DNA of 64,000 nt from Bacteroidales bacterium. Its GTDB lineage: Bacteria > Bacteroidota > Bacteroidia > Bacteroidales > F082. The position numbers and the translations under genes were made by a program. Positions within the stretch are counted from its first letter, which is position 1. Each line of letters starts with the position of its first letter. Shown piece after piece: positions 246 to 62,276 of this stretch. The notes under the pieces were generated by a model that was not told the origin of the DNA, made no database searches, and saw only the letters and a program-made list of their open reading frames with translations. The DNA is taken from assembly GCA_045612345.1 (NCBI GenBank), contig JAZKYV010000040.1, positions 13,749 to 77,748 on the forward strand, read 5' to 3'.

Positions 246-2792
246 TTATTTCTTTACAATCTTAACCATTGTCTCATCAACGCTGATGAAATACATACCT
301 GCGTTAAGGTTTGAGATGTTGATTGTGTTGATGCCTTCGCTGATGTTTTGTTGTGAAAGCATTTGACCGTTGACAGAATAAATCTTGACAACTGCGTCTT
401 TTGCACTTTCTATTGTAACGAAATCTTTAGCAGGATTTGGATACATAGTGAAAACTACTTCATTGTTTTCTGCTACAGATACTGTGAGTGTTGCAGTAGC
501 AGTTGCTTTTTCTGATTCGCCGTCTTCATAAACAGCTGTTACAGCGTAGTTATATATACCTGATTCCAAGTCTTCGTCAACGTATGATGTTTTTGCTGTA
601 TTGCCGATCAAAGCATCATTTCTGTAGATATTGTATTTTGTTGGTTCTGCATTGAATGGAGCATTCCATGTCAATTCAATATCATTATCGCTAACTACTA
701 TTGCTTCAAGATTTGATACAGGTGTGAATTGGTCTGCAAGTTGGTAATATTTTGCAGAAGCCTTGCTGCCCATAGCGATATCTGTATAAACGACACATGG
801 AGATTCTTTGTGTAATGTCATTGCCATGTAAGTGTCTGTACTTGATTCTGTGAAAGCTCTTTGACCGACATAAGACCATTCTGTTCCGTTATATTTCATC
901 ACAGAAACTTTGTCTCCGAAGCTGCCGTCAGCGTAAGCCACATAGAAGTTATTTTCGCTGTCTACAGCAACGTCGATGCCTTTAACTGTACCGTCTGCTA
1001 TGTTGTCGCCTAACATTTCCCAGTCAGCGCCGTTGTGACGATAAACTGCTAATTGTTCAGTACCTTTTACAACATAAGCGAGGTAGATGTTACCGTTAGC
1101 GTCGATTGCTACGTCTTGACAGTTTTTAGCGATGAAGTTTTCTTCAGATACTGGAGCGTTGCCTATTGTCAACCAGAGTTCGCCTACGAGTTTAGAGACG
1201 TACATCTTGTTGCCAGCGTAGAAGTCAACCCATGATACATAAGGAACGCCTTTGCTGTCGAGAGCCAATCTTGACCATGAGCCACCGCCTGAAGTGATGT
1301 AGCTGCCCATTGTCTCCCAGTTGCCGTTTTTATATCTGTTCAAGTAGTAACGGTTGTTTTCACCAGCATCGTTAAATGCTACATAAACGCTGTTTTGTGC
1401 GTCAACAGCAATCTTTGGAACTGAACCGATCTTACCGATGTTGCTAACTTCTGACCATTCGTCATTAGCATATTTCATGACTTTAATCAAGTTGTTTGAC
1501 TTAAGGTTATATGTTACATATACACCGTCAGTACCAGCTGCGATGCTACCATCGTAACCCATTTCATCCATGATTATTGCTAACTTCTTCCATGTCTTGT
1601 TTTTATCATATCTGTAAAGGGTAGGGAAACCTGATTCATATAAGAATGTGTAGATATCACCATTGTAAGAACATGTTCCGAAGATGAAGCCGTAGCCTAC
1701 TTGTGTGAAAGCGCGTTCGCCTAATGTTTCCCAGCTTGCGTTCAAAGCGTCTTTAACAGTGATTGTGAATTCTTGGTAAGTTGCATCTGCGCCATCGCTG
1801 ACTTTCAATACTACTACATATTCGCCTGCTTGTGCTGGAACGCCAGAAAGTTTTGCTGACTTACGATCAATTTGTTTTAATGTCAACCATTCTGGTTTTT
1901 GTTCTACGCTTACGACAACATCTCTATTATCTGTATCGTGGAAGTATACATCATAGATATATTCTGTACCAGCTGGGACGTCTAAAACAGGAACTGAAGT
2001 GAATTTTGGAGCAGCGTTTGTTTTGCCGTTAGCATAAGCGCTTATGCCAGCATTGTCAACAGTGCCGTTTTCATTTAACACGATACCAACGACTCTGATA
2101 TAGTTGTGGTCATAAGCTTCTGGCAAATAATATGTAAATGTCTGAGCGAATGACTGACCTTTTGCAAGTGTCATTGGGAAACCTGTTTCGCCTTCATAAG
2201 GAGAGAGAAGCTGACGAGCTACGTGGTCGTAAGCAATTCTATAAGCAGGAACTGGGTTTGGAAGATTTTCAAAACCACCTACAGGGTAGTAGTAGTTTGA
2301 ATATTGGTTTGCTTGGTTATATTGAGAAGTTGTACCAGAGACAGCGTCTTCGCAAACAACGCCGCCAACTGTGTATGTGCCTTCCATATTTTCAAGAGCT
2401 GTGACTGTGACAATGGCTGTCAACAAACGTGTAGCTTCTTCGAATTGTGTTGTCACGACAACGCTTGCTTTTGGAGCATAGTTCATTTCATCCTGAACAG
2501 CAGCAAACCATTCGTCTGTGTTCTTACCAGTGAAACGACGACCGATGTTTGCTGATGGAGCTGAAGTGAGCTTTGCTTTTTCAAAGTAATCTTCGCATGC
2601 CATTACGTCGTTGGTATGTATTGCTATCGCAATAACATTGTCATAAGTATGCACCAATGAATCGATGTAGTAAATACCAGTAGGGCAATAGCTGCACCAT
2701 GTTCCGGTAACCTCTTCAAGAAGCACATTCTTTTGCGCTGTCAAAATGTTCAAAGACAACATTGCGCAAATAACAAGTAATAATTTCTTCAT
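246..2792 (-). CDS. T9SS-sorted multidomain surface protein with Omp28/thioredoxin-like N-domain
   Basis: 848 aa with a signal peptide (MKKLLLVICAMLSLNILTAQ). The N-domain has a CxxC (WCSYCP), followed by an Ig/He_PIG-like segment. There are repeated W-x-x-hG propeller-like units (NDEWSEVSNIG, KNGNWETMGSY, NGADWEMLGDN, NGTEWSYVGQ) and an FN3-like segment. The C-terminal T9SS sorting domain reads MYPNPAKDFV...GMYFISV...KIVKK. Confidence 0.8.
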   Translation of the reverse strand: MKKLLLVICAMLSLNILTAQKNVLLEEVTGTWCSYCPTGIYYIDSLVHTYDNVIAIAIHTNDVMACEDYFEKAKLTSAPSANIGRRFTGKNTDEWFAAVQDEMNYAPKASVVVTTQFEEATRLLTAIVTVTALENMEGTYTVGGVVCEDAVSGTTSQYNQANQYSNYYYPVGGFENLPNPVPAYRIAYDHVARQLLSPYEGETGFPMTLAKGQSFAQTFTYYLPEAYDHNYIRVVGIVLNENGTVDNAGISAYANGKTNAAPKFTSVPVLDVPAGTEYIYDVYFHDTDNRDVVVSVEQKPEWLTLKQIDRKSAKLSGVPAQAGEYVVVLKVSDGADATYQEFTITVKDALNASWETLGERAFTQVGYGFIFGTCSYNGDIYTFLYESGFPTLYRYDKNKTWKKLAIIMDEMGYDGSIAAGTDGVYVTYNLKSNNLIKVMKYANDEWSEVSNIGKIGSVPKIAVDAQNSVYVAFNDAGENNRYYLNRYKNGNWETMGSYITSGGGSWSRLALDSKGVPYVSWVDFYAGNKMYVSKLVGELWLTIGNAPVSEENFIAKNCQDVAIDANGNIYLAYVVKGTEQLAVYRHNGADWEMLGDNIADGTVKGIDVAVDSENNFYVAYADGSFGDKVSVMKYNGTEWSYVGQRAFTESSTDTYMAMTLHKESPCVVYTDIAMGSKASAKYYQLADQFTPVSNLEAIVVSDNDIELTWNAPFNAEPTKYNIYRNDALIGNTAKTSYVDEDLESGIYNYAVTAVYEDGESEKATATATLTVSVAENNEVVFTMYPNPAKDFVTIESAKDAVVKIYSVNGQMLSQQNISEGINTINISNLNAGMYFISVDETMVKIVKK

Positions 2793-2839
2793 AACTTTTT
2801 TGTTGATTTAATTAAGGGCACAAAGATAAAAAAAGTCTT

Positions 2840-4582
2840 TTAATAAACTTTCAATTTATCACCAGTTTGTTCTATGATTGCTCTATAATATTCATCGCTG
2901 AATTTAGGTTGTTCAACCTTTGGAGCATAGAACTTGTGGCTTTTTGGTGTTGCTTGAGCTGTCTTGACGTTGAAGTCCATATATTTTACAAATAAATATT
3001 TATAGAACTCTCTCCAGTCTGCAACCAATCTTTCAGCTTCTGTGCATGAGAATTTAGTGAGGAACTTAACAGCTTCTGCTGGATTTTCATTATACAATCT
3101 AGCTGCTTGTTCGTCGATGCGAGCTACTTCTTTAGCCCAGCCTTTTTCATAAGCTGCTTGGCGTTCAGCGATTTCTGGTTGGATGTAACGATATTTTGTA
3201 TAAGCCCAGTTTGTAACTTGGTTGAATGCCCAGAATGCTGATGTCTCTGAGAATTCCATGATGCTGCCGTTGCCAACACTGTATGCCTTAGGTGTTTCTG
3301 TCATACATGTGTACATTGGGCAATATACTGTGCTTGCTGCATCGTCAACGCCGAACCAGATGATACCGCCGATTTCAGCGATTGTGTTAGGACGACATTG
3401 TGCTACAAATGAGAAAGCTGTCTGTTGTGTTGCTGTTGCACGTTCGTGAACATATTCAACGCCGTCAACTTCCCAGCCCATTGGACGTGGTCTGTAAGGA
3501 CAACCGAATGGACCAGCGCCGATGTCTTGAGTCATGTCGAGTTCTGTTCCTTCAAGGTGGTCACGCATAAATGCCATAACATCTAAAAGGCTGACTTTTT
3601 CTGTTGGCTTAACCCAGAGAGGCATTCTGTTTGTTGGGAAGTTCTCAGGTGTTTGTGGCTGACCGCTTACATAAGGTTTTGCGCGGTTGATGTTTCTACC
3701 TGTTGCATAATCCCAGTATTGATCCATGCCGTCAACGATTTGGTTAAACATAGCCCAAACACGGATTTCACAAGCGCGAGCGCCGCTGAAGTCTACTGGT
3801 GCATAAACGTCTGAGAATGAGAATTTCTCATCTGGACCTGCGTATAAATTATTTTTCTTAGCGAATGAGATAACGTCAGCTGCGTAAACACAGTCGATGT
3901 TTTGATTCTTCAAAAGCTTGTCGATGTTCTTTGAAGTGATACTGTTTTTGTTTTGCTTGTTAGCTAATGGGAAAGTGGTAATACGAGCTTGGTTAGCGTG
4001 AGCTGAAACATAGCCGTCTGGCACACGGAGAGCTACCCAAACAGCGCCTGTCTCTTGACCTTTACCGATGAGTTCCATGATCCATACTTCGTTAGGGTCA
4101 ACGATAGAGAATGATTCGCCGTCGCTGATATAACCATAGTTAGCAACTAACTCAGCCATGACCTTGATAGCTTCACGAGCTGTCTTAGCACGTTGTAATG
4201 TGATGTAAATCAAGCTGCCGTAATCGATCAAACCATTAGGATTGCCTAAGTTTGGAAGTCCGCCGTAAGTTGTTTCTGCAATAGCGAGCTGCCATTCATT
4301 CATATTACCTACAACATTGTAAGTGTGAGCAACTTCTGGGATGCTGCCGAGATATCTTCCTGAGTCCCAATCGACGATTTGTCTCATTGTGCCTTCTGGA
4401 TAGTCAGCTGCAGGGAAATGATATAACTCGCCGTAAAGAACGTGAGAGTCTGCTGCGTAAGAAACCATAGATGTTCCGTCAACAGAAGCTCCCGGAGTGA
4501 TTAAGAAATTTGTACATGCCATAGCTGGTCTCACGAATGAAACTAAGCAGATAGCAACTAATAAAGTCAATACTCTTTTCAT
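2840..4582 (-). CDS. Peptidase family C69 dipeptidase (secreted)
   Basis: 580 aa. The signal peptide ends directly before a Cys nucleophile (PAMA|CTNFLITPGASVDGTSM), the Ntn-hydrolase signature of C69 dipeptidases. Confidence 0.8.
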   Translation of the reverse strand: MKRVLTLLVAICLVSFVRPAMACTNFLITPGASVDGTSMVSYAADSHVLYGELYHFPAADYPEGTMRQIVDWDSGRYLGSIPEVAHTYNVVGNMNEWQLAIAETTYGGLPNLGNPNGLIDYGSLIYITLQRAKTAREAIKVMAELVANYGYISDGESFSIVDPNEVWIMELIGKGQETGAVWVALRVPDGYVSAHANQARITTFPLANKQNKNSITSKNIDKLLKNQNIDCVYAADVISFAKKNNLYAGPDEKFSFSDVYAPVDFSGARACEIRVWAMFNQIVDGMDQYWDYATGRNINRAKPYVSGQPQTPENFPTNRMPLWVKPTEKVSLLDVMAFMRDHLEGTELDMTQDIGAGPFGCPYRPRPMGWEVDGVEYVHERATATQQTAFSFVAQCRPNTIAEIGGIIWFGVDDAASTVYCPMYTCMTETPKAYSVGNGSIMEFSETSAFWAFNQVTNWAYTKYRYIQPEIAERQAAYEKGWAKEVARIDEQAARLYNENPAEAVKFLTKFSCTEAERLVADWREFYKYLFVKYMDFNVKTAQATPKSHKFYAPKVEQPKFSDEYYRAIIEQTGDKLKVY

Positions 4583-8447: not shown

Positions 8448-8490
8448 TCTCAAAATTTTTGAGGTTCTGAGTTTCTGAATTTCTGAATCT
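8448..8490. repeat. Tandem 7-8-bp word array (TTYTGAR), reverse complement of the YTCARAA family
   Basis: tctcaaaatttttgagg ttctgag tttctgaa tttctgaa tc. It fills the gap after the LTD gene stop and encodes the last ~13 codons of the minus-strand DUF1893-like ORF. Confidence 0.8.
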
Positions 8491-8884
8491 TTAAAAATGC
8501 TCCTTGAGGATCGTCAATATCAATACAAAGCGTTTCCATCGGGCATAAGCCATCGCCTTTTCTGTTGATGATTCTATCTACGATTTTATCGTATGAGATT
8601 TTAATATTATGATTTTCAAATACAACAACAGCAGGTTTGCTGATGGTAGGAGTATATACTTCCTTGACGCCTGCGTAGACCATAAGCAAAGCAGCAGCTT
8701 TACCTATTACTTTATCAGCCACAATAGCACCTTGCAGCTGCGATGCGTCTTCGTTAAGAAGTTTTAATAATGGAGCAACGCCCCTGTCATTTGAAACTAT
8801 AACAGAGGCGTCACTTTTATATATCACTATAGTGTGATTTTCCTTTAATAAAATATCTTTTAAATCTTCAATATGCATAATCAT
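8450..8884 (-). CDS. DUF1893 (TM1506-like) domain protein
   Basis: A glycine-rich core (DKVIGKAAALLMVYAGVKEVY) is typical of DUF1893. I place the start at the ATG at 8882-8884 (MIMHIEDL). The longer track ORF start (8932) is encoded by repeat arrays. The C-terminal KIQKFRNSEPQKF is also repeat-encoded. Confidence 0.55.
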   Translation of the reverse strand: MIMHIEDLKDILLKENHTIVIYKSDASVIVSNDRGVAPLLKLLNEDASQLQGAIVADKVIGKAAALLMVYAGVKEVYTPTISKPAVVVFENHNIKISYDKIVDRIINRKGDGLCPMETLCIDIDDPQGAFLKIQKFRNSEPQKF

Positions 8885-8887
8885 GGT

Positions 8888-8947
8888 CAACAGACTACGG
8901 ACAACAGTCAACAGATTTTGTTCAGAGTTCAACGTTCAATGTTCAAC
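8888..8947. repeat. Two abutting heptad arrays: (CAGACTA/CGGACAA family) then (GTTCARN family)
   Basis: caacagactacggacaacagtcaacagat (8888-8916), then gttcagagttcaacgttcaatgttcaac (8920-8947). It lies between two co-oriented genes and contains the stop codon of ORF 8929-9432. Confidence 0.85.
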
Positions 8948-22154: not shown

Positions 22155-22196
22155 ATATTAATTTATGAGCAAAGATAATAAAGAATTTACAATTAA

Positions 22197-22267
22197 AACT
22201 CAGAAATTCAGAACTTAAGAAACTTAAAAAAATTTGAGATTTTGATGTTTTTAAATTCTGAATTTTT
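22197..22267. repeat. Inverted octad arrays (YTCAGAAN / TTAAGAAA) and (TTTGAKRT / TCTGAATT)
   Basis: aactcagaaattcagaacttaagaaactt, then an A-run, then tttgagattttgatgtttttaaattctgaattttt. Confidence 0.8.
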
Positions 22268-26242: not shown

Positions 26243-26332
26243 ATCTTGAACTCAGAACCTTGAATCTTGAACACTGAACCTATTAGTTCAAAGTTCAAAG
26301 TTCAGAGTTCAGAGCTCAAAGCTCAGAGTTCT
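26243..26332. repeat. Gene-less hairpin built from heptad arrays: (CTTGAAY/CTCAGAAC)x5, loop, (GYTCARA)x6
   Basis: cttgaac tcagaac cttgaat cttgaac actgaac c, tatta, then gttcaaa gttcaaa gttcaga gttcaga gctcaaa gctcaga gttc. It starts 5 nt after the GT2 stop codon. Confidence 0.88.
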
Positions 26333-26339
26333 TAACAAA

Positions 26340-32710: not shown

Positions 32711-32822
32711 AAATTCAGAATTTCAAAATATCAGAAATTCAGAAAAATTTAAAACCCCTATAAGTTTAACTTATGGGGGTTCTTTATTTTGAGGTTTTGA
32801 GATTTTGAATTTCTGATATTTT
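32711..32822. repeat. Octad word arrays flanking a terminator; perfect 17-bp inverted repeat
   Basis: AAAATATCAGAAATTCA at 32725-32741 and its exact reverse complement at 32806-32822. Both arms are made of YTCARAAW / WTTYTGAR words. The terminator hairpin lies between them. Confidence 0.88.
32751..32790. terminator. Rho-independent terminator nested inside the inverted arrays
   Basis: Stem ACCCCTATAAG / CTTATGGGGGT with a T-rich tail, and an A-run on the other side. It lies between convergent genes. Confidence 0.75.
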
Positions 32823-35564: not shown

Positions 35565-35588
35565 AAAGACACCAAGTCTCTGTGACTT
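35565..35588. repeat. Short array of the GACACCRA family filling the whole metG/yraN convergent spacer
   Basis: aaagacaccaagtctctgtgactt. The first 13 nt (AAAAGACACCAAG, counting the last A of the metG stop) also occur downstream of radA at 49781-49793. Confidence 0.6.
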
Positions 35589-35955
35589 ATTTAAGAGAAG
35601 GATAGAATGCATCTTCAATGTGTTCTATCCTTTTTTCATTATTTCTGTCGATGACGATTGCGATGATGTCGAATCTTACATCGTTGTCGTATTGATAGCG
35701 ATTGACGTATGAATTTGCAGCCCAGATGAGATGTCGTTGTTTATAGACATCGACAGTCGCTTCAGGTTCGACGAGGCAGGTGCTGTGTCGCGTTTTCACT
35801 TCTACGAAGACGATGGTGTTACCGTCTTTTGCGATGATGTCGACTTCTTTGTGGCCGCATGACCAATTCTTTTCTAAGATCTGATAATTACGCTCCAGAA
35901 GATACTCCAAAGCGATTTGTTCGCCTAAGGCGCCAATTTCATTGTGTTTTGCCAT
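35587..35955 (-). CDS. yraN: YraN-family (UPF0102) endonuclease-like protein
   Basis: 122 aa with GEQIALEYL, EVDIIA, IVFVEVKTR, a PD-(D/E)xK-like core. Confidence 0.8.
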   Translation of the reverse strand: MAKHNEIGALGEQIALEYLLERNYQILEKNWSCGHKEVDIIAKDGNTIVFVEVKTRHSTCLVEPEATVDVYKQRHLIWAANSYVNRYQYDNDVRFDIIAIVIDRNNEKRIEHIEDAFYPSLK

Positions 35956-35975
35956 AATTTTTTTGGTTTAAGGTT
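35952..35975. repeat. 24-bp perfect direct repeat, copy 1 (CCATAATTTTTTTGGTTTAAGGTT)
   Basis: Covers the yraN start codon and leader. An identical copy lies at 36370-36393. Confidence 0.9.
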
Positions 35976-35982
35976 TAATAAA

Positions 35983-36012
35983 AGACTACAGACTATGGAC
36001 TACAGACTACGG
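35983..36012. repeat. Heptad array (AGACTAY/GGACTAC)x4
   Basis: agactac agactat ggactac agactac gg. It is inverted relative to 36416-36443, with a 12-bp perfect complementary core (GGACTACAGACT). Confidence 0.88.
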
Positions 36013-36022
36013 TTAGAGTGTT

Positions 36023-36373
36023 TTAATTATTTTTTAGAAATTCTCTTAACTTATAGATTTGTTTGGATATAACTGACAATTTTGATTGTAGTTCTTGTCG
36101 TTTTTCTGTACTGCAATAATTTAAATCTTCACAAAGGTAAAGCATACTTTTGACTTCTGCGCAACTTCCATAAGATATGTTGAGATAACGAATGTAAGTT
36201 TTATCAGAACCACTTTCTGAACCTTCAGCAATGTTGTTCATAATAGACAAAGAAGCTCTTTGTATTTGATCACGGAAACCATAATCATTACAAGTATACA
36301 TTACTTCATAAATGGCTTTGACAAATAATCTAGAGTCTTGCCATACTCTTAAATTTTCAAGATTTCTTTCCAT
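36023..36373 (-). CDS. Four-helix-bundle protein, 23S rRNA-intervening-sequence / DGR-Avd family (copy 1)
   Basis: 116 aa with the family signature DQIQRASLSIMNNIAEGSESGS...YL.IS.GS..E. Confidence 0.85.
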   Translation of the reverse strand: MERNLENLRVWQDSRLFVKAIYEVMYTCNDYGFRDQIQRASLSIMNNIAEGSESGSDKTYIRYLNISYGSCAEVKSMLYLCEDLNYCSTEKRQELQSKLSVISKQIYKLREFLKNN

Positions 36374-36393
36374 AATTTTTTTGGTTTAAGGTT
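36370..36393. repeat. 24-bp perfect direct repeat, copy 2
   Basis: Covers the four-helix-bundle ORF start codon and leader, 418 bp from copy 1. Confidence 0.9.
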
Positions 36394-36408
36394 ATTATTA
36401 TGATTGAT

Positions 36409-37002
36409 TTAATCTGAAGTCCGAGGTCCGAAGTCTGTAGTCCTTCTTTCCACTAACTCGCAAATAATATGTCCTATCATAATGTGGCTTTCTTGTATGC
36501 GTGGGGTGTCGGTGGAAGGAACGTTAAGTAATATTCCGCCGAAGTCTTTCATCATTCCACCCGTTGCTCCGGTGAGCGAGATGATGTTGACGCCGAGTTC
36601 TTCACATGTTTTATAAGCTTCTATTATGTTACGGCTGTTACCGCTTGTCGATATTCCAACGAGCACGTCGCCTTTTTTTGCTGACGCTCTCATGATTCTG
36701 CTATAAACCATGTCGTAGCCGTAGTCGTTGCTGACGGCTGTCATGTAAGAAGAGTTGCAATGCAGGGCTTCTGCGTTGAGCGGATCGCGATCCAGATAAA
36801 AGCGGCCGCTGAGTTCCGCAGCGAGATGCTGTGCGTCGGCAGCGCTGCCGCCATTGCCGCAGAAATGAATCTTGCCGCCATTACGCAGACTCTCTACGAT
36901 GAGATTGACAGCGTCTTCAATAGACTGCATCAGTTTCTCATCAGATAAGATTTTGCTTTTTACCTCAATGCTTTGCTCTATGGACTCTTTTATTCTGTTC
37001 AT
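36409..37002 (-). CDS. gmhA: D-sedoheptulose-7-phosphate isomerase (SIS domain)
   Basis: 197 aa, collinear with E. coli GmhA (FCGNGGSAADAQHLAAEL, GISTSGNS, RIQESHI). The last ~12 codons (RRTTDFGPRTSD) are encoded by the heptad array. Confidence 0.85.
   Translation of the reverse strand: MNRIKESIEQSIEVKSKILSDEKLMQSIEDAVNLIVESLRNGGKIHFCGNGGSAADAQHLAAELSGRFYLDRDPLNAEALHCNSSYMTAVSNDYGYDMVYSRIMRASAKKGDVLVGISTSGNSRNIIEAYKTCEELGVNIISLTGATGGMMKDFGGILLNVPSTDTPRIQESHIMIGHIICELVERRTTDFGPRTSD
36416..36443. repeat. Heptad array (GRAGTCY/GTAGTCC)x4
   Basis: gaagtcc gaggtcc gaagtct gtagtcc. It lies inside the 3' end of gmhA. Confidence 0.88.
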
Positions 37003-48414: not shown

Positions 48415-49782
48415 ATGGCAAAAATTAAGACTGTTTTTTATTGTAAGGAGTGTGGTAATGAGTCACCTAAGTGGATCGGTCATTGCCCTGGCTGTGGAGC
48501 GTGGAATAGTTATGTGGAAGAAAGCGTTGCTGTTGGAAAAGATAACAAGTCTGCCAAGAATTCTTTTTTGCCAGAGATGAAATCCAAGCCTGTTCCTGTC
48601 TTGGAGATAAGCGCGGCCAAAGAGGCTCGCATCGATATGGGATGCGAGGAACTCAACCGCGTTTTGGGTGGCGGTCTCGTCTCTGGTTCTCTCATATTGC
48701 TAGGCGGCGAACCTGGAATAGGAAAATCGACGCTTTTGCTGCAAGTGGCTCTTAACCTTAAAGATAAGAAAATACTTTATGTATCTGGCGAAGAGAGCGC
48801 ACAACAGATCAAGATGCGCGCTGAGCGTATAGGTGTGCGTAACGAGAGCTGCCTCATCCTGACCGAGACAAATACTACAGACATCACGAAACATATCGAA
48901 GAGACAAAGCCAGACATCGTTGTCATCGACTCAATACAGACTCTCGAGTCGGCGGCAGTCGACTCAACGGCGGGCAGCATAAGTCAGATTCGTGAGACTG
49001 CCGCCGAGATGAACAAGGTGGCGAAATCTCTTCACATCCCGACATTCCTCATAGGTCATATCACCAAAGACGGCAGCATCGCCGGACCTAAAATCTTAGA
49101 ACATATAGTCGATACCGTGATACAATTCGAGGGCGACCGCCACTATGGTTTCCGCGTCCTTCGCACCATAAAAAACCGCTTCGGTTCTTCTTCAGAACTA
49201 GGTATCTTCGAGATGAATGCCAATGGTTTACGTGAGGTGTCAAACCCAAGTGAGATCTTGTTGTCGCAACGTGACGAGAACGTCAGCGGCATCAGCATCG
49301 CTGCCACTCTCGAAGGGCTGCGTCCTATGATGATAGAGACTCAGGCTCTGGTCAGCACTGCTGCTTATGGCACGCCTCAACGTAGCTGCACCGGCTTCGA
49401 CACTCGCCGCCTTAATATGCTGCTCGCGGTGCTGGAGAAAAGGGCAGGATTCCGCCTCTCTACCAAAGACGTCTTCCTCAACATAGCGGGAGGATTGCGC
49501 GTTGATGATCCTGCTATCGACCTTGCTGTGGTAGCAGCGATTTTATCATCGAACGAAGATGTGGAGATAAGTAACAGATATGCCTTCGCAGCAGAGGTGG
49601 GACTCTCCGGCGAGATACGCTCGGTCAACAGGATAGAAGCCCGCATCGCCGAAGCCGACAAACTCGGAATGGAAAAGATATTTGTGTCGAAATACAACTG
49701 CAGAGGCCTCGACACCTCCAAATTCAATGTTGAGGTAGTACCGTTGGCGACGATAGGAAATTTGTTTAAAGAGTTGTTTTAA
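48415..49782 (+). CDS. radA: DNA repair protein RadA
   Basis: 455 aa with a Zn finger (CKECGNESPKWIGHCPGCGAWN), Walker A (GGEPGIGKST), KNRFG, and a Lon-like C-domain. Confidence 0.95.
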   Translation: MAKIKTVFYCKECGNESPKWIGHCPGCGAWNSYVEESVAVGKDNKSAKNSFLPEMKSKPVPVLEISAAKEARIDMGCEELNRVLGGGLVSGSLILLGGEPGIGKSTLLLQVALNLKDKKILYVSGEESAQQIKMRAERIGVRNESCLILTETNTTDITKHIEETKPDIVVIDSIQTLESAAVDSTAGSISQIRETAAEMNKVAKSLHIPTFLIGHITKDGSIAGPKILEHIVDTVIQFEGDRHYGFRVLRTIKNRFGSSSELGIFEMNANGLREVSNPSEILLSQRDENVSGISIAATLEGLRPMMIETQALVSTAAYGTPQRSCTGFDTRRLNMLLAVLEKRAGFRLSTKDVFLNIAGGLRVDDPAIDLAVVAAILSSNEDVEISNRYAFAAEVGLSGEIRSVNRIEARIAEADKLGMEKIFVSKYNCRGLDTSKFNVEVVPLATIGNLFKELF

Positions 49783-49810
49783 AAGACACCAAGACACCGA
49801 GACACCGAGA
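49783..49810. repeat. Octad array (GACACCRA)x3
   Basis: aagacacc aagacacc gagacacc gaga, starting 1 nt after the radA stop. It is inverted relative to 50222-50256, with a 13-bp perfect complementary core (CCAAGACACCGAG). Confidence 0.88.
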
Positions 49811-49840
49811 TTTATATTTATTAACTAAAAGTCAAAAATT

Positions 49841-50200
49841 ATGAAGCGCACAATAGAAAATTTATACATTTGGCAAGAGTCAAGAAGCGTAGTAAATGAT
49901 ATCTACACATTGATGAAAGATTGTAGAGATTTTGGTTTTAAGGACCAAATTCAAAGAGCATCTATAAGTATTATGAATAATATTGCAGAAGGAACAGAAT
50001 CAGGATCTGATGCGAAGTATATAAACTTTCTGAATATTTCAAGAGGCAGTTGCTCCGAAGTGCATTCAATGTTATACCTATGTGAAGATTTTAAAATATG
50101 TTCACAGGAAGAAAGAATTAAGATTCAGAATAAAATAAAACTATTGTCAATAGGGATAGTAAACTTAATCAATTATATTTCAAATAACAAGAAGCATTAA
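49841..50200 (+). CDS. Four-helix-bundle protein, 23S rRNA-IVS / DGR-Avd family (copy 2)
   Basis: 119 aa with DQIQRASISIMNNIAEGTESGS...FLNISRGSCSEV. It is roughly 55-60 percent identical by eye to copy 1. Confidence 0.85.
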   Translation: MKRTIENLYIWQESRSVVNDIYTLMKDCRDFGFKDQIQRASISIMNNIAEGTESGSDAKYINFLNISRGSCSEVHSMLYLCEDFKICSQEERIKIQNKIKLLSIGIVNLINYISNNKKH

Positions 50201-50215
50201 TCAGGTTACTTAAAC

Positions 50216-51142
50216 TCAATTCTCGGTGTCTTGGAGTCTAAGTGACTTGGTGACTCTAAAAAACCATACTACCAAAAACGACATTCCCCATCGTGAAAGC
50301 AGCATCCAGAGGTATGCTCCGCCGGCTGCAGTGAACAATAAAAGATCTTCTAAGTTGCTGTGTGATATCCCTATATGCATATTTAGAAGGTCGTTTTCTT
50401 CTTTGGTGGTTTCGCCTTTTTCTGCTTCTTCTATCATAATGCCTGCGCCGTAAGCCAGTCCCAAGGTGTTGGATACTAACCATAAGAAAGCGCATTTCGG
50501 TGATAGACCGAAAAATATCATCACTGGCTTTAAGAATCTTGAGATGTATTGTATTATGCCGAACTCGGTTAATATCTTTTGTAACAATGTCAAGAGATAT
50601 ACCAACAAGGCCATCGTGAGTATGTTCTTCGTTGTTCTGAAAGCCCATTGCTTTAACATCACTGCAAATGTCAGATTGTCTTGTATGGAACTTTCAATGG
50701 CTTGGTTTTCAAAGCCTCCAGGCATGATTTTGTTTAAGACCCATCCTAATATGAATGCTGATAATGTTCTTACTATAACAATCTTGATTACAGAAGAACC
50801 TGTCTTATGCTGAACGGCTGTCTCTACGATCATATTATGCGAACAAAGCACCATGACGGATAATATCGTCGCGGCTCTTGTGCTGAGTTCTAATGTCGTC
50901 ATCACGGCGATGGCGGAATAGCAGTTGACGAAATATCCTGATACATAAGCGAGCGCTGCTTCACCAGGAAGTCCGAAGTGTGAGAAGATAGGAGTGAGCC
51001 AATATGAAATCCATTCTATGATTCCGAAATATTGTAATAATAATATCACAAATGATAGAGAGACCATTATCTTGGTCAGCCACCAGATGGTTTTTAATGC
51101 GCTCGGTCTGGCGCTTTTGATGCAATTTGTAAATCGTGACAT
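50216..51142 (-). CDS. Nucleoside-recognition (Gate) domain-like polytopic membrane protein
   Basis: 308 aa with about 8 TM helices. The family call is tentative. The last ~12 codons (VTKSLRLQDTEN) are encoded by the octad array. Confidence 0.45.
   Translation of the reverse strand: MSRFTNCIKSARPSALKTIWWLTKIMVSLSFVILLLQYFGIIEWISYWLTPIFSHFGLPGEAALAYVSGYFVNCYSAIAVMTTLELSTRAATILSVMVLCSHNMIVETAVQHKTGSSVIKIVIVRTLSAFILGWVLNKIMPGGFENQAIESSIQDNLTFAVMLKQWAFRTTKNILTMALLVYLLTLLQKILTEFGIIQYISRFLKPVMIFFGLSPKCAFLWLVSNTLGLAYGAGIMIEEAEKGETTKEENDLLNMHIGISHSNLEDLLLFTAAGGAYLWMLLSRWGMSFLVVWFFRVTKSLRLQDTEN
50222..50256. repeat. Octad array (CTYGGWGW)x4, reverse complement of GACACCRA
   Basis: ctcggtgt cttggagt ctaagtga cttggtga ctc. 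Confidence 0.88.
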
Positions 51143-51148
51143 TTTTGA

Positions 51149-51787
51149 TTATAAACGACCTGTTATCTTGAAACTGATTATTAGATTCGGAACTTCTGTT
51201 GTTAGATATTGTGTTGAGATATAGGCTCCTGCACTGTAATTATACAACTCTCTTGTGTTGTTTGTGCAGTTGCTCATTCCATACATAACTTCAACGCCAT
51301 AAGACAGTTTTTTGTGTGAGAGACCGATTTCTGGAGCGAAATACAAACCTTTGTTATAACTAGATCTCGTCACTACGCTGTATGTGTTTTCTACTGTGTA
51401 AGAATATTCTATCACCGCCTTTTTAAAAGGGCATATATATCCTGCGCTGATACTGTAATATGGAATTACTTTGCTTTCTTTTTTTGTAATATTGCCTCTG
51501 ATATTCATGAATATAGGTATCTCTAGGGAGAAGTCATTGCCTTTGTTGTCAAGAGGTATTCCAAAATTATCATCGTTTAATATGTGGTTGACATAACAGA
51601 ATCCAAGACCGCCGCCGATGGAAAAATGATCGTTTTTAAAATTGCTGTAAATTCCTTTCAATGATATTGCCATTTCCATTGATTTTGTTGCACCGGCAGA
51701 AACTTCAAGATATCCGCGATTGTTTTGCGCAAATGAAATATTTGCAATCATGAACAATGGAAGTAAAAGAGAAAGTAGTTTTTTCAT
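51149..51787 (-). CDS. Outer-membrane beta-barrel protein (porin-like, hypothetical)
   Basis: 212 aa with a signal peptide (MIANISFAQ) and an alternating aromatic/Gly strand pattern. Confidence 0.5.
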   Translation of the reverse strand: MKKLLSLLLPLFMIANISFAQNNRGYLEVSAGATKSMEMAISLKGIYSNFKNDHFSIGGGLGFCYVNHILNDDNFGIPLDNKGNDFSLEIPIFMNIRGNITKKESKVIPYYSISAGYICPFKKAVIEYSYTVENTYSVVTRSSYNKGLYFAPEIGLSHKKLSYGVEVMYGMSNCTNNTRELYNYSAGAYISTQYLTTEVPNLIISFKITGRL

Positions 51788-51795
51788 GTCTCATA

Positions 51796-51841
51796 TTTTT
51801 AATTAGCAAACATAATGATTTTTAATTAGCAAACATAATGA
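51796..51841. repeat. Perfect 23-bp tandem duplication (TTTTTAATTAGCAAACATAATGA x2)
   Basis: Copies at 51796-51818 and 51819-51841. On the minus strand each carries TATGTTTG (51807-51814 and 51830-51837), a TAnnTTTG -7 motif upstream of the gene starting at 51787. Confidence 0.9.
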
Positions 51842-54375: not shown

Positions 54376-54410
54376 AGACTTTGAACCTTGACTTTGAACC
54401 TTGAACTTTT
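54376..54410. repeat. Heptad array (CTTTGAA/CCTTGAM)x5
   Basis: agactttgaaccttgactttgaaccttgaactttt, starting 3 nt after the topA stop. It is inverted relative to 54827-54892. Confidence 0.85.
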
Positions 54411-54413
54411 AAT

Positions 54414-54446
54414 AATACCTCGGGATTTTCCGGGGTATTTTTTATA
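54414..54446 (+). terminator. Rho-independent terminator
   Basis: Stem ATACCTCGG / CCGGGGTAT (one mismatch) followed by T6. Confidence 0.7.
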
Positions 54447-54475
54447 TCAAAATTTATAACCTTAAAAATTACAAC

Positions 54476-54826
54476 ATGAGAAATTTTAGAGAATATGACA
54501 TTTGGAAAGATTCGATGATCATTACCAAAGATGTTTATTTATATACAAAAGAGTTTCCAAAACAAGATGCCATTATAAATCAAATGCAAAGGGCTGCAAT
54601 TTCTATCCCGTCTAATATTGCAGAAGGTTCATCGAGAAAGTCTTCTGTTGAATTTGCTAGATATATAGAAATAGCATTGGGTTCAGCATACGAGTTAGAG
54701 ACACAAATAGAATTGTCTTTTCTTCTTCATTACATAAATAATGATATTTATAAAAAATTAATATCAAATGTTTGTAGTGTTGAAAAACGAATGTCAAAAT
54801 TTATATCAACATTAAGAGAAAAATAG
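54476..54826 (+). CDS. Four-helix-bundle protein, 23S rRNA-IVS / DGR-Avd family (copy 3, divergent)
   Basis: 116 aa with NQMQRAAISIPSNIAEGSSR...YIEIALGSAYELETQ. Confidence 0.8.
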   Translation: MRNFREYDIWKDSMIITKDVYLYTKEFPKQDAIINQMQRAAISIPSNIAEGSSRKSSVEFARYIEIALGSAYELETQIELSFLLHYINNDIYKKLISNVCSVEKRMSKFISTLREK

Positions 54827-54892
54827 CTCAAAGTTCAGAGCTCAAAGTTCAAAGCTTAAAGTTCAGAGCTCAAAGTTCAAAGTTCAGAGTCC
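54827..54892. repeat. Heptad array (GYTCARA/GCTTAAA)x9
   Basis: ctcaaa gttcaga gctcaaa gttcaaa gcttaaa gttcaga gctcaaa gttcaaa gttcaga gtcc. It fills exactly the gap between the 4HB stop (54826) and the polA stop (54893). Confidence 0.9.
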
Positions 54893-57583
54893 TTAGTGCG
54901 CTTCCAGCCAATTGGTTCCTGTGTTGAGATTAACTTCAATAGGAACATTGAGTGGGAGCGCATTTGTCATTTTATCTTTGACGAGTTCGCTCAATATATC
55001 GAGTTCTTCTTTATGGACGTCGAAGACCAATTCGTCGTGTACCTGTAATATCATCTTGGATTTCAGATCTCTTGCTTTCATCTCGTTGTAGATGTTGGTC
55101 ATCGCTATTTTTATCATATCGGCTGAGCTGCCTTGTATTGGCGCATTGATGGCGTTTCTCTCTGCGAAGTTCCTTACTACGCTGTTGCCGGAGTTGATGT
55201 CGCGGAGATAACGACGGCGTCCTAACATAGTTTCAACATATCCGTATTGTTTCGCGAAATCGACTTGCTTGTCGATATATTCTTGAATGCCGATATATTC
55301 TTTGAAATAATTCTTTATTATCTCTGAGGCCTCGCTTCTTGATATCTTTAATCTTTCTGCCAATCCGAATGCCGACATTCCGTAAATGATGCCGAAGTTG
55401 ACAGCTTTGGCGTTGCGACGCATTTCGCTGGTGACGTCTTTTATGTCAACGCCATAGACGCGAGCTGCTGTGTCAGCGTGAATGTCAAGCCCCTCACGGA
55501 AGGCAGACTGCATGGCTTGGTCGCCGCTGAGATGAGCGATGATTCTTAACTCAATCTGCGAATAATCCGCTGCGAGCAGTATGTGGTTTTCGTCACGTGG
55601 AACGAAGGCCTTTCTGATCTCACGGCCTTTGTCGGTACGAACCGGTATGTTCTGGAGGTTAGGGTTGTTGGAACTCAATCGACCTGTGGCTGTAACGGCC
55701 TGGTTGAATGAAGTGTGAATGAGACCATCGTAAGGGCTTACCAATGAAGGCAAGGCATCGACATAAGTCGATTTGAGTTTTGTCAGAGAACGATAGTCGA
55801 GAATATGTTGTACTATAGGGTTTTCGTTTATGATCTTTTGGAGGACATCTTCGCCTGTAGGATACTGGCCTGTCTTTGTTTTCTTGGCAGGCGCCTTTAT
55901 CTGCAGCTTGTCAAAAAGAATCTCGCCCAATTGTTTTGGTGATCCAATGTTGAAAGTCGTGCCAGCGATTTCATAGATGCTGTTTTCTATATCAGCAATC
56001 TCTTTGGCTTGTTCCTCGCTGATCTGTTTCAGTCCGTTGATGTCTATCTTGACGCCGTTGGATTCCATCTTGGCAAGGACTCTTACCAATGGCATCTCGA
56101 TGTCGTGGAAAAGGCTTTCTAAATCATTTTCAGATAATAAGTCCTTGAACTTATCGTAAAGCTGCCATCTGATGTCGGTATTGTCTGTGGCGTAAATGTC
56201 GTTGAGATAATCGAGACTATGATTCAATTCCGGCTCAATGAGATAGTGAGCTATCATGCAGTCCCATAACTTATTGTTGATCTCAAAACCATATTTTGCA
56301 AGAATTGAGATGTCGGTCTTGATGTTATGGCCTATTATCGTTTTCTCATTGTCGTTGAAGATGCAAGAGAATTTTGTTAATAAGTCTTTGCATTTCTCGT
56401 CATCGACAGGAAGTTCTATCTTGTAAATGTCGTTAGGGTTGACGGCAAAAGTCATTTCTCTTGTCTCGATATGGAAAGAGAATTCATTGCAGCTCTTGAG
56501 ATTGTCAATAAGTTCATTGATTTGAGAATCATCTTTAACGATGATGAACTCACGAGTTTTAACAATGTTGGTAGCAGGTTCTTCATCGAAGCCGCCGAAA
56601 AGATCAAGCTGGCTGTTGGCTGCTGGCTGTTGGGTATTAGCCATCGGCTTTTGGCTTTTAGCTACTGGTTGTTGGTTATTGGTTGAAGTCTGTTGTCTGT
56701 TGTCTGTTGTCCGTTGACTCTTAAACCTCGCAAGGAATGTTCTGAATTCCAGTTCTTCGAATAATTCGGTGAGGCGATCCATATCAGGGTCTTTGACTTT
56801 CAGCTGTTCTTCATCGAAATCGACAGGTACGTTGGTGTCTATTGTCGCGAGTTTTTTAGACATAAGACCTTGTTGTGCGAAGTTGATGACGTTCTCTCGC
56901 ATTTTGCCTTTTAGTTTATCGGCATTTGCGATGAGGTTTTCAACGGAGTCGAATTCAGCTATGAGTTTGGAAGCGTTTTTCTCCCCGATGCCAGGGATGC
57001 CAGGGATGTTATCGGAAGCGTCGCCCCATAGTCCGAGTATGTCGATGACTTGTTCAGGGCGGGCAATGCTGTATCTCTCGCATACTTCTGCAGGTCCGAG
57101 GACTTTTGCAGGCTCGCCGCCTTTTGCAGGTTTATAGATGAATATGTTTTCACTTACGAGCTGCCCGAAGTCTTTGTCGGGAGTCATCATAAATGTGGTG
57201 AAGCCTTCTTTTTCAGCTTTCTTGGATAGCGTTCCTATTATGTCATCGGCTTCATAGCCTTCGCGTTCGAAGATAGGAATGTTAAAAGCTTTTATGATTT
57301 CCTTTATGTAAGGGACAGAAGCCTTGATGTCAGGAGGTGTCTCTTCTCGGTTGGCCTTATAAGCGGAGAAGTCGTCGGTGCGGAGGGTAGGAGCGCCGAG
57401 GTCGAAGGCAATGCCTATATGGGTGGGTTTTTCGTTTTTAAGCACTTCATATAAAGTGTTCAGAAAACCCATAATGGCAGAAGTGTTCAAGCCTTTTGAG
57501 TTGATTCTTGGGTTTTTATTTAAAGCAAAATAGGCCCTATATATAAGTGCGTAAGCGTCGAGAAAGAATACCTTTTTCATCAT
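54893..57583 (-). CDS. polA: DNA polymerase I
   Basis: 896 aa with a 5' nuclease domain (FLDAYALIYRAYF, GIPGIGEKNA), a 3'-5' exo-like domain, and pol motifs (LLAADYSQIELR, RRNAKAVNFGIIYG, QVHDELVFD). It contains an in-frame repeat-derived linker. Confidence 0.95.
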   Translation of the reverse strand: MMKKVFFLDAYALIYRAYFALNKNPRINSKGLNTSAIMGFLNTLYEVLKNEKPTHIGIAFDLGAPTLRTDDFSAYKANREETPPDIKASVPYIKEIIKAFNIPIFEREGYEADDIIGTLSKKAEKEGFTTFMMTPDKDFGQLVSENIFIYKPAKGGEPAKVLGPAEVCERYSIARPEQVIDILGLWGDASDNIPGIPGIGEKNASKLIAEFDSVENLIANADKLKGKMRENVINFAQQGLMSKKLATIDTNVPVDFDEEQLKVKDPDMDRLTELFEELEFRTFLARFKSQRTTDNRQQTSTNNQQPVAKSQKPMANTQQPAANSQLDLFGGFDEEPATNIVKTREFIIVKDDSQINELIDNLKSCNEFSFHIETREMTFAVNPNDIYKIELPVDDEKCKDLLTKFSCIFNDNEKTIIGHNIKTDISILAKYGFEINNKLWDCMIAHYLIEPELNHSLDYLNDIYATDNTDIRWQLYDKFKDLLSENDLESLFHDIEMPLVRVLAKMESNGVKIDINGLKQISEEQAKEIADIENSIYEIAGTTFNIGSPKQLGEILFDKLQIKAPAKKTKTGQYPTGEDVLQKIINENPIVQHILDYRSLTKLKSTYVDALPSLVSPYDGLIHTSFNQAVTATGRLSSNNPNLQNIPVRTDKGREIRKAFVPRDENHILLAADYSQIELRIIAHLSGDQAMQSAFREGLDIHADTAARVYGVDIKDVTSEMRRNAKAVNFGIIYGMSAFGLAERLKISRSEASEIIKNYFKEYIGIQEYIDKQVDFAKQYGYVETMLGRRRYLRDINSGNSVVRNFAERNAINAPIQGSSADMIKIAMTNIYNEMKARDLKSKMILQVHDELVFDVHKEELDILSELVKDKMTNALPLNVPIEVNLNTGTNWLEAH
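56609..56720. repeat. Intragenic heptad array, 16 units (112 bp), inside polA
   Basis: ctggctg ttggctg ctggctg ttgggta ttagcca tcggctt ttggctt ttagcta ctggttg ttggtta ttggttg aagtctg ttgtctg ttgtctg ttgtccg ttgactc. On the coding strand this gives the 7-aa-periodic QRTTDNR QQTSTNN QQPVAKS QKPMANT QQPAANS. Confidence 0.88.
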
Positions 57584-61581: not shown

Positions 61582-61650
61582 AGTCAACAGACAACGGACA
61601 ACGGACAACACTCAAAAGTCATTGTCAATTGTTAATTGTCAATTGTTAAT
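61582..61650. repeat. Heptad arrays (RGACAAC)x4 then (GTYAATT)x4, partly self-complementary
   Basis: agtcaac agacaac ggacaac ggacaac actcaaa agtcatt gtcaatt gttaatt gtcaatt gttaat. It fills the pheS-start / PPIase-stop spacer. Confidence 0.85.
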
Positions 61651-61652
61651 TT

Positions 61653-62276
61653 TTATTTTAAAATTTCAATTGTCATTGTTACGGCTTCAACAGGAACATC
61701 CATATAACCTGTCTTTACCTTAGCGATTTTGTCGATGATTTCGAGACCTTCAACAACTTCACCGAATACTGTATATTCGCCGTCCAAGTGTGGAGTGCCG
61801 CCAACTGTTGTATAAGCTTCGATTTGTTCTTGTGTGAAAGTCAAGCCCATACGTTGTTGATACATTTGGATGTGAGCATCTGTTAACACTTGACCTTGAA
61901 CGATGTAGAATTGGCATCCGCTAGAAGCTTTTTTAGGGTTGACATGGTCTCCTTGACGAGCTGCAGCCAGAGCGCCTTTTTTGTGGATGTGGTTCGCGCG
62001 GAATTCAGCTGGGATTGTATAACCTGGATCAACGCTACCGTCTTGGTTGTGGCCGCCTTGAATCATGAAGTTATTGATAACACGGTGGAATGGTGAATTG
62101 TTGTACCAACCTTCGTTAATAAGCTTTATGAAATTATCTCTATGTAATGGAGTGTCGTTGTATAACTTAACAGTGATGTCACCTAATGAAGTCTTGATCA
62201 AGACTAATGTTTCTTTTTCTTGTGCTTGTGTTGTCATGCCTAATAATATACAAATGATTAAACAAATTTTTTTCAT
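61653..62276 (-). CDS. Cyclophilin-type peptidyl-prolyl cis-trans isomerase (secreted)
   Basis: 207 aa with a signal peptide, FHRVINNFMIQGG, and SGCQFYIV. Confidence 0.9.
   Translation of the reverse strand: MKKICLIICILLGMTTQAQEKETLVLIKTSLGDITVKLYNDTPLHRDNFIKLINEGWYNNSPFHRVINNFMIQGGHNQDGSVDPGYTIPAEFRANHIHKKGALAAARQGDHVNPKKASSGCQFYIVQGQVLTDAHIQMYQQRMGLTFTQEQIEAYTTVGGTPHLDGEYTVFGEVVEGLEIIDKIAKVKTGYMDVPVEAVTMTIEILK

Follow-up and report, generated by a model that had tools for sequence, protein, structure and literature searches.

Proteins of the PF05635/TIGR02436 family were first recognized in rRNA intervening sequences (1993), and the family was later met again as the fold of Avd, the cofactor of diversity-generating retroelements (DGRs). 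To our knowledge, its stand-alone members still have no assigned function. Here, we analysed a gene of this family in a 64,000-nucleotide stretch of a Bacteroidales genome (contig JAZKYV010000040.1), hereafter called the window, to which all positions refer unless another locus is named. The gene encodes a four-helix-bundle (4HB) protein and is enclosed between two inverted arms built of short tandem words. The whole, called cassette 2, lies where radA and the convergent gene of a nucleoside-recognition membrane protein (Gate gene) meet. The window holds three 4HB genes, each bracketed by tandem-word inverted arms.

The closest described systems are the S23p intervening sequences (IVSs) of 23S rRNA, found in Leptospira and Coxiella burnetii, whose open reading frame (ORF) belongs to the same PF05635 family as that of cassette 2. 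The Coxiella IVS measures 428-444 nt and ends in a 28-bp terminal stem that is cut by RNase III (PMC4990558). With about 464 nt, cassette 2 is of similar size and falls within the 0.4-0.8 kb typical of an S23p ORF surrounded by a long terminal stem; its arms are 28 and 36 nt long. In both systems, the ORF lies within terminal inverted repeats forming a stem of about 28 bp, is oriented in the sense of host transcription, and belongs to an element that is AT-rich as compared to the genome, patchily distributed and horizontally acquired. The two systems differ in their location. The rRNA IVSs are inserted in a 23S rRNA helix (25 or 45), whereas cassette 2 sits where two protein-coding genes, radA and the Gate gene, overlap at their 3′ ends, and an Rfam scan of the window gave no match to rRNA or to any other family. 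Moreover, the arms of the cassette are made of tandem 7-9-nt words in variable copy number, and one of them supplies codons to the neighbouring gene. Finally, processing by RNase III is known for the rRNA IVSs and would extend to the cassette by analogy.

Within the window, radA (48415-49782, plus strand, 455 aa) is intact and its TAA stop codon (49780-49782) adjoins the left arm. This 5′ arm (49783-49810) reads A AGACACCA AGACACCG AGACACCG AGA, that is (AGACACCR)x3.5, with a period of 8, 3.5 copies and 95% matches according to Tandem Repeats Finder. A 30-nt A-rich leader follows (49811-49840, plus strand); it contains a TTAAC motif that recurs in other cassettes and has no convincing promoter. 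Next come the 4HB gene (49841-50200, plus strand, 119 aa, PF05635 23S_rRNA_IVP/TIGR02436) and a 3′ spacer (50201-50220), which includes the Gate stop codon (50216-50218) and is missing in strains L161-L170. The 3′ arm (50221-50256) is a degenerate complementary array, TCTCGGTG TCTTGGAG TCTAAGTG ACTTGGTG ACTC. The Gate gene itself (50216-51142, minus strand, PF07670, 308 aa) is convergent to radA. Further genes around the cassette code for a SusC-like receptor, an unannotated 212-aa protein and topA. The cassette interior has a G+C content of 28%, as compared to 38.7% for the window. No canonical terminator was found in the radA/Gate gap. The only sigma-70-type match in this gap (49791-49818, 9/12) is at the level of shuffled sequences, with a consensus that does not cover Bacteroidota promoters.

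Aligned as an inverted repeat, the two arms match at 76% over 38 nt and at 95% over a 19-nt core, and they share a perfectly complementary stretch, CCAAGACACCGAGA / TCTCGGTGTCTTGG, of 14 nt. Taken alone, the arms fold with an energy of -35.8 kcal/mol on the plus strand and -35.4 kcal/mol on the minus strand (z scores of -6.9 and -6.6, 0/200 shuffles as stable), and the same stem closes the full 501-nt fold on both strands. Chance repeats as the source of the arms are ruled out by these shuffles and by Markov nulls. The right arm is also part of the Gate gene. Indeed, the last Gate codons, (R)VTKSLRLQDTEN, giving the tail ...FFRVTKSLRLQDTEN, are read from this arm on the minus strand; the arm encodes (R)VTKSLRLQDTE and the final N codon (50219-50221) straddles its inner edge. 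The native last five or so codons of the Gate gene are thus swapped for 12 arm-encoded codons.

The 119-aa protein is a clear member of the S23p/Avd-like PF05635/TIGR02436 family. It matches PF05635 with an E-value of 3e-29 (101.8 bits, cut-off 33.8) and TIGR02436 with an E-value of 3e-28 (98.3 bits, cut-off 24). The family motif, GxxRxxxSxxxNxxE (PMC3936711), is supplied by QIQRASISIMNNIAEG, in which R39, S43, N47 and E50 are invariant in both alignments made and the leading G is replaced by Q. A monomer model was built with AlphaFold (AF2) on 27 sequences. It predicts four helices (2-24, 31-53, 57-83 and 89-118), with a predicted local distance difference test (pLDDT) value of 95.6; according to this model, the protein is an up-down four-helix bundle. 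The closest solved structures in a Foldseek search are XCC0516 (2GSC; template modelling (TM) score 0.80-0.85, root-mean-square deviation (rmsd) 1.5 Å) and BT_0352 (2RLD), also retrieved by profile searches with E-values of 1e-24 and 3e-11, respectively. Each of them was crystallised with five chains. The next structural matches are Avd from the Bordetella-phage DGR (4DWL; TM 0.77/0.84, rmsd 2.0 Å) and the Avd chains of the DGR ribonucleoprotein (8UB7, 8UBE). Avd (4DWL, 8UB7) therefore has the same fold as the cassette protein, with a sequence identity of only 10%; the family link between Avd and PF05635-type proteins is stated in PMC10053308. In its pentameric form, Avd binds an RNA stem-loop of 11 bp, which all five protomers contact through the same residues (bioRxiv 10.1101/2023.10.23.563531). 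By analogy with XCC0516 and Avd, the cassette 2 protein is probably a pentamer. Unlike the cassettes, Avd genes have not been reported to be bracketed by word-repeat arms. A DGR context was considered for cassette 2 and ruled out by the absence of a nearby reverse transcriptase: no reverse-transcriptase match was found among the cassette-flanking genes, the search for repeats covering positions 49700-50350, with no wider search aimed at a template/variable repeat pair. PADLOC and PHROGs gave zero matches for all three 4HB proteins of the window, which set aside an anti-phage defence or phage protein identity. The family is large: searching with a single sequence (E <= 1e-3) returned 7,477 clusters at 50% identity. 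The cassette ORF is kept under purifying selection, as 4HB dN/dS values range from 0.05 to 0.15 within and between cassette types; L002 holds one truncated 4HB copy.

An earlier note on this stretch, made from the sequence alone, had described the ORF at 49841-50200 as a diverged paralog of the cassette 1 gene. This holds, with 58.6% identity and saturated synonymous sites between the two ORFs. Its description of the arms as complementary tandem-word arrays holds as well, and the perfect core that it announced is present, although it measures 14 nt rather than 13 bp. The proposal that the right arm had been taken into the end of the convergent gene is borne out by the arm-free tail of the empty site and by the diverse arm-encoded tails of orthologs reported below. 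The note had spoken of a four-helix bundle; it missed the 23S rRNA IVS protein/Avd-like family and the insertion polymorphism, and did not mention cassette 3.

To see how the radA/Gate junction is organised in other species, a scan with the Gate protein, keeping one genome per species, yielded 80 loci. These are Bacteroidales genomes assembled from metagenomes of herbivore guts, some of which bear the label Candidatus Limimorpha or Lentimicrobiaceae. A 4HB cassette occupies the convergent junction in 15 loci. Empty junctions are those of L069 and L008, where the radA and Gate genes overlap (17 nt) and no array is present, and of L017, where a 21-nt gap separates the genes. L010 has a 25-nt arm-like footprint, and in L025 the arms surround a decayed remnant. 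As compared to the L069 empty site, ...GAGTTGTTTTGAAA^ACTCTAAAAAACC, the window has about 464 nt at the caret (about 49787-50250), with no target-site duplication longer than 1 nt. The Gate protein of L069 ends with VFKTTP. The 120 closest Gate orthologs are near-identical up to ...VWFFR and then have diverse tails, among which VFKTAP, VYKSMSQ, VTKTLSHRVTK, VTEMLRC and ISMMMTR, corresponding to translated arm words or to read-through into radA. In some relatives, the arm replaces the last 3-8 codons of radA. Near 8585-10900 in L005, L006, L007 and L009, the locus is rearranged, with the Gate gene directly downstream of radA on the same strand; there, the Gate tails differ again (IAMMVSR, ISMMMTR).

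The type of cassette present at this junction also varies. Words of the AGACACCR or RAGTCACC type are found in the window, L003 and L026; GAGTCTAT/AAGTCAAT in L001, L004, L012, L016, L018 and L020; GAGTTGCT/AAGTTACT in L002, L011, L013, L014 and L024; and GAGATGCT in L015 and L074. All have a common RAG+5 skeleton, and each word type pairs with its own 4HB clade. Between the window and its closest relative, L001, dS is 0.19 for radA and 0.30 for the Gate gene, whereas the 4HB genes differ by a dN of 0.21 and a dS of 1.5, with different arm words. Therefore, the cassette was replaced and did not diverge in place; vertical in-situ divergence as the origin of the differing words is ruled out by the 4HB dS value. 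The ORF has the opposite orientation in L003 and L074, each arm being still next to its flanking gene. Strains with an identical 4HB protein differ by whole arm words, and this gain and loss of words explains why the Gate protein has 299, 303, 307 or 313 residues. The outermost words are common to different cassette types (GAGTCTAT beside radA, CTTAGTGA/CTTGGTGA beside Gate), which suggests replacement inside existing arms; recombination internal to the arms would be the simplest reading of these sequences. Close 4HB homologs (94-97% identity) are all located at the same site. Overall, the data show that cassettes are lost, inverted and type-swapped at one site between closely related species, and that the arms, which gain and lose whole words, change more quickly than the ORF.

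The relation between arms and ORF was then followed across the family. When metagenomes were scanned with eight aligned 4HB proteins, 80 loci were retrieved, originating from soil, sediment and gut samples (35-73% identity). Seventy of these had long enough flanks and, with the three cassettes of the window, made up 73 independent cassettes. In 48/73 cases (66%), the match between the upstream flank and the reverse-complemented downstream flank of the same cassette exceeded the 95th percentile of cross-pairs. The arm periods were 7, 8 or 9 only (15, 10 and 6 arms, respectively) and were equal in both arms in 12/13 cassettes. The words themselves vary from one cassette to another (GGTCTAAG, GGTGGAAA, GCAGAAG, GTTCAAG, GGTCCAAG, TAGTGCT, AAGTTTAT). 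Arms were similar in 100% of the pairs with more than 90% protein identity, in 40% at 70-80% and in 1-3% below 60% (Mantel r 0.34, 0/500 permutations as high). In the 4HB clade named hb2, AGAC-type words occur at three different sites, in cassette 1 (59% protein identity), in the P0159 cassette (78%) and in cassette 2. Thus arms and ORF are inherited together, and the word type follows the ORF lineage, not the site.

Read inward, arm words are rich in AAAG/AAGT/AGTT (28-39%, as compared to 5% in shuffled sequences and 2-3% for the reverse complements), defining a family-wide AAAGT-like core with a fixed polarity. The 5′ arm is purine-rich in 34/43 cassettes (p = 2e-4). Mismatches in arm pairing, counted on the sense strand, were G-U rather than A-C in 126 vs 80 cases overall and in 27 vs 18 when counted by cassette. 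The 4HB gene has the orientation of its upstream neighbour in 53/57 loci and that of its downstream neighbour in 54/60, and is thus inserted in sense within gene strings. 23S_rRNA_IVP genes had earlier been noticed wedged between cas genes (PMC3936711), which fits promiscuous insertion within operons. Finally, the density of arrays in the metagenome loci reaches 39-48 per 10 kb beside 4HB ORFs as compared to 4.3 elsewhere, the random expectation being about 0.07. Arrays far from the ORF best matched the arms of their own locus in 24/65 cases (5/38 without loci L119 and L121), where about one was expected.

Word arrays are also found without the gene. In the window, 24 rows of period-7/8 arrays were detected for 0.45 expected under third-order Markov nulls, a roughly 50-fold excess, and most of them abut or overlap gene 3′ ends. 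Complementary array pairs have loops of either 9-105 nt or 390-460 nt, and the long loops hold a 4HB ORF with one exception. The exception, at 20452-20897 of L020, breaks the rule that all pairs with a loop of about 400 nt are 4HB cassettes. It contains about 390 nt without a 4HB ORF, with a terminator-like hairpin and possibly a structured RNA inside. ORF-less hairpins of 7-8-nt words, mostly at gene 3′ ends, are located at 112-187, 22196-22265, 26260-26335, 32711-32822 and 61585-61655. The hairpin at 26260-26335 uses cassette 3 words, and the loop of that at 32711-32822 contains a canonical terminator hairpin. A solo array, CTTAGTGTCTTAGAGTCTTGGTGACTTA (221-248), has 22/28 positions (about 79%, counted by eye) in common with the right arm of cassette 2 and overlaps the stop codon of a type IX secretion system (T9SS) sorting domain gene (246-2792, minus strand). 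It may be a relic of a cassette 2-type cassette.

The topA/polA junction carries a word hairpin in most relatives (TTGAAC, AAGACTAC, TCTAAAG, TTGAAAA or TTGAGAA words); in one relative a canonical terminator takes its place, and in three the gap is occupied by other genes. L001 and L002, the closest relatives, have a minimal ORF-less hairpin made of cassette 3 words, and in L003 and L016 the words of the AAGACTAC hairpin are those of the P0159 cassette. In locus L121, word hairpins are inserted in frame in two ORFs, a UDP-glucose-dehydrogenase-like one (149-1930) and a DegT-like one (2554-3852), where they give stretches such as NLEPRTLNIE. Their word family (GAACNTA / TTGAAC) is that of the arms of the 4HB gene of the same locus (2048-2413).

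The results of these surveys also bear on the more general claims of the earlier note. Its view that the flanks keep their structure while the sequence changes is supported by the radA/Gate site of other species, where GAGTCTAT, GAGTTGCT or GAGATGCT are used, and the covariation between arms that it proposed to look for is visible in the 48 cassettes matching their own partner. On the other hand, the words of cassettes 1 and 2, which it called unrelated, both have an AGAC core, and the family as a whole has an AAAGT-like core of fixed polarity; given the AGAC-type words of the hb2 clade at three sites, this was an overstatement. Tandem-word arms do surround the 4HB ORFs, but they are not exclusive to cassettes, many ORF-less hairpins lying at gene 3′ ends.

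The other cassettes have the same organisation. Cassette 1 (35978-36443, minus strand) contains a 4HB ORF at 36023-36373 and AGACTAC-type 7/8-nt words. Its arms are located at about 35981-36010 and 36411-36443, one of them encoding the tail of a SIS-domain gene (36409-37002). A perfect 24-nt direct repeat, CCATAATTTTTTTGGTTTAAGGTT, occurs at 35952-35975 and 36370-36393. Its copies cover the starts of the cassette 1 4HB gene and of the next downstream host gene, UPF0102/YraN (35587-35955), so that the latter bears an exact copy of the cassette 1 leader plus ATG(G). An orthologous empty site for cassette 1 was sought via YraN, and the exact protein had no database record. Cassette 3 (54376-54892, plus strand) lies in the topA/polA convergent gap, with a 4HB ORF at 54476-54826 and arms at 54377-54409 and 54825-54892 (TTGAACY / AAGTTCA words). 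Between its left arm and its ORF, at 54417-54447, is a hairpin resembling a canonical terminator (ACCTCGGGATTTTCCGGGGT and then a run of T); therefore, cassette 3 may need its own promoter. When the window is compared with L014 and L007, dS is 0.24-0.29 for the 4HB gene of cassette 3 and 0.76-1.64 for the flanking topA and polA ends. Cassette 3 is thus younger than its flanks. The two closest relatives do not have it, and all this is consistent with the same site having been entered by horizontal movement or gene conversion. The P0159 cassette, whose 4HB protein is 78% identical to that of cassette 2, sits in an ArsP_2 / DcuA_DcuB convergent gap (L177-L182). These strains have 3-6 copies of AAGACNAC words, and the upstream permease accordingly ranges from 407 to 422 aa.

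Some other repeats were noticed in the window. A DUF1893 (PF08973) gene (8453-8881, minus strand) has arrays at both ends (8454-8488 and 8888-8947) that are not mutually complementary. Inside polA, a 7-nt periodic array of about 14 copies with 70% matches (56610-56716) encodes a low-complexity linker rich in Q/P/A/N. A perfect 23-nt tandem duplication, ATTTTTAATTAGCAAACATAATG x2, occupies 51795-51841, in the divergent region between the gene at 51149-51787 (minus strand) and topA.

With somewhat more belief than doubt, we consider that cassette 2 is a selfish cassette of the 23S-rRNA-IVS type residing outside rRNA, transcribed from radA, cut in its arms by RNase III and bound by a pentamer of its own product. 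Our confidence is high for the mobile IVS-type cassette, and moderate to low for processing and binding, which are modelled on the rRNA IVSs and on Avd. The 4HB gene would have no promoter of its own and would be transcribed by read-through from radA. In the transcript, the arms would pair in a duplex of about 30 bp closing a 390-nt loop. RNase III probably cuts this duplex, as in rRNA IVSs, which would free the 4HB mRNA and make it independent of the host messages. The protein probably binds the RNA structure of the arms, in which the repetition of 7-9-nt words would give several protomers equivalent contacts. Slippage and template switching between the arms probably keep them complementary. 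Because the outermost words are common to cassette types, one cassette probably replaces another via recombination inside the arms or the hairpin.

Several observations weigh against this reading. The G-U excess is weak and transversion-type mismatches are the largest class, which makes for weak evidence of selection on an RNA duplex. The arm stem is equally stable on both strands. ORF-less hairpins are many, and those of the closest relatives include cassette 3 words, so that the arms could be a host feature. The genes flanking the three cassettes include no match to a transposase, an integrase or a reverse transcriptase, and there is no target-site duplication (at most 1 nt), at variance with a transposon or MITE (miniature inverted-repeat transposable element), although a transposase elsewhere in the genome is possible. 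RNase III cleavage and read-through are proposed by analogy, and the binding of the protein to the words is purely conjectural. The promoter scan used a sigma-70 consensus, which does not cover the promoters of Bacteroidota. Moreover, the S23p protein of the Coxiella IVS was reported to be probably not made in vivo (PMC4990558).

In the main rival reading, the word hairpin would be a lineage-specific host device located at gene 3′ ends, a bidirectional terminator or RNA-stabilising feature grown by slippage, into the loops of which 4HB genes land. The 4HB gene would then be a separate selfish gene, as are IVSs in rRNA loops, and the arms would remain outside the mobile unit. Such an account is possible, though we think it unlikely. 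It agrees with the numbers in the window (at least five ORF-less hairpins plus several unpaired arrays, for three cassettes), with the way ORF-less hairpins hug stop codons, and with the topA/polA junction, where nearly every relative has a word hairpin or a canonical terminator and where L001 and L002 have the words of cassette 3 without its ORF. The A/G-rich 5′ arm and T/C-rich 3′ arm give the polarity expected of bidirectional terminators, and the outermost words at the radA site are the same for several cassette types. However, the empty radA/Gate sites of L069 and L008 have no array, and intrinsic termination is not possible with a stem whose loop measures 390 nt. The word type follows the 4HB lineage, as seen with the AGAC-type words of hb2 at the radA, ArsP/Dcu and SIS/YraN sites, and arm similarity tracks protein identity. 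In addition, across phyla, the density of arrays next to 4HB ORFs is about ten times that of the remainder of the same loci. It is quite improbable, in our opinion, that the arms act at the DNA level as terminal inverted repeats, with cassettes and ORF-less hairpins as autonomous and MITE-like forms mobilised either by the enzyme of another locus or by the 4HB protein, which would itself bind DNA and serve as mobility factor. Presence/absence polymorphism with precise boundaries, the bimodal loops (9-105 or about 400 nt), the solo copy of a cassette 2 arm at 221-248, the in-frame hairpins of L121 sharing the 4HB word family of their locus and the match of far arrays to their own arms would all suit such an element. 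The ORF of IVSs was indeed proposed to be a mobility component by Ralph and McClelland, as quoted in PMC4990558. Nevertheless, neither a target-site duplication nor a nearby transposase, integrase or reverse transcriptase accompanies the cassettes. The cassettes of a given genome have different words, the ends of which could not all be recognised by one trans-acting enzyme; the 119-aa helical bundle has no known catalytic motif; and homologs of 94-97% identity are all at the same site, so no recent transposition is seen.

The selfish IVS-type reading can also be set against a regulatory one, in which the 4HB pentamer would be a TRAP-like, sequence-specific binder of RNA words that autoregulates via its arms and controls genes having hairpins of the same word. 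Each cassette of the window does have, elsewhere in the window, an ORF-less array of identical or similar word type (221-248, 26260-26335 and 8888-8915/61585-61609), the words combine a conserved core with a variable part, and Avd contacts RNA by repeated identical contacts from different protomers. This possibility nonetheless appears very improbable. The topA/polA hairpin of relatives does not match the radA/Gate cassette type of the same locus, and the copy number in the arms, from 3 to more than 14 and unequal between arms, does not suit a fixed pentamer footprint. A wider proposal regards PF05635 genes and their tandem-word inverted arms as a class of their own, widespread and made of hairpin elements that propagate themselves, whose pentamer would recognise its own words, about one per protomer. 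It is tentative and, to our mind, rather unlikely. If true, the class would include full cassettes, the ORF-less hairpins derived from them and the in-frame insertions in genes; word recognition would drive processing, maintenance or spread of the arms; and the classical rRNA intervening sequences would be the members that landed in rRNA.

Short hairpin-forming repeats at many intergenic sites are well known, such as Rickettsia palindromic elements, REP/REPIN (repetitive extragenic palindromic) sequences and MITEs. Each family of these palindromic repeats has a conserved sequence and a known or suspected transposase (RAYT for REPINs), and Rickettsia palindromic elements also insert in frame into coding genes. 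In-frame gene insertion is likewise seen for the word hairpins of L121. In contrast with these elements, the hairpins described here consist of tandem words that differ by site, and the associated gene encodes a helical bundle. The literature searched gave no description of tandem-word arms, site polymorphism or ORF-less hairpins, which is not proof of novelty.

The interest of these results rests on a family-wide rule and not on the single copy of cassette 2. In this Bacteroidales lineage, gene ends are remodelled on very short evolutionary time-scales. The neighbouring genes have hypervariable, length-variable C-terminal tails because arm words are read as codons, and the cassette arms thereby explain the annotation problem raised by such tails. 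The family signature comprises polymorphic and replaceable cassettes, insertion in sense, complementary arrays of 7-9-nt words and accompanying ORF-less hairpins. It yields testable hypotheses, namely RNase III processing, word-specific binding by the pentamer and exchange of cassettes at hairpins. The word-repeat bracket is a hallmark of this widespread 4HB family.

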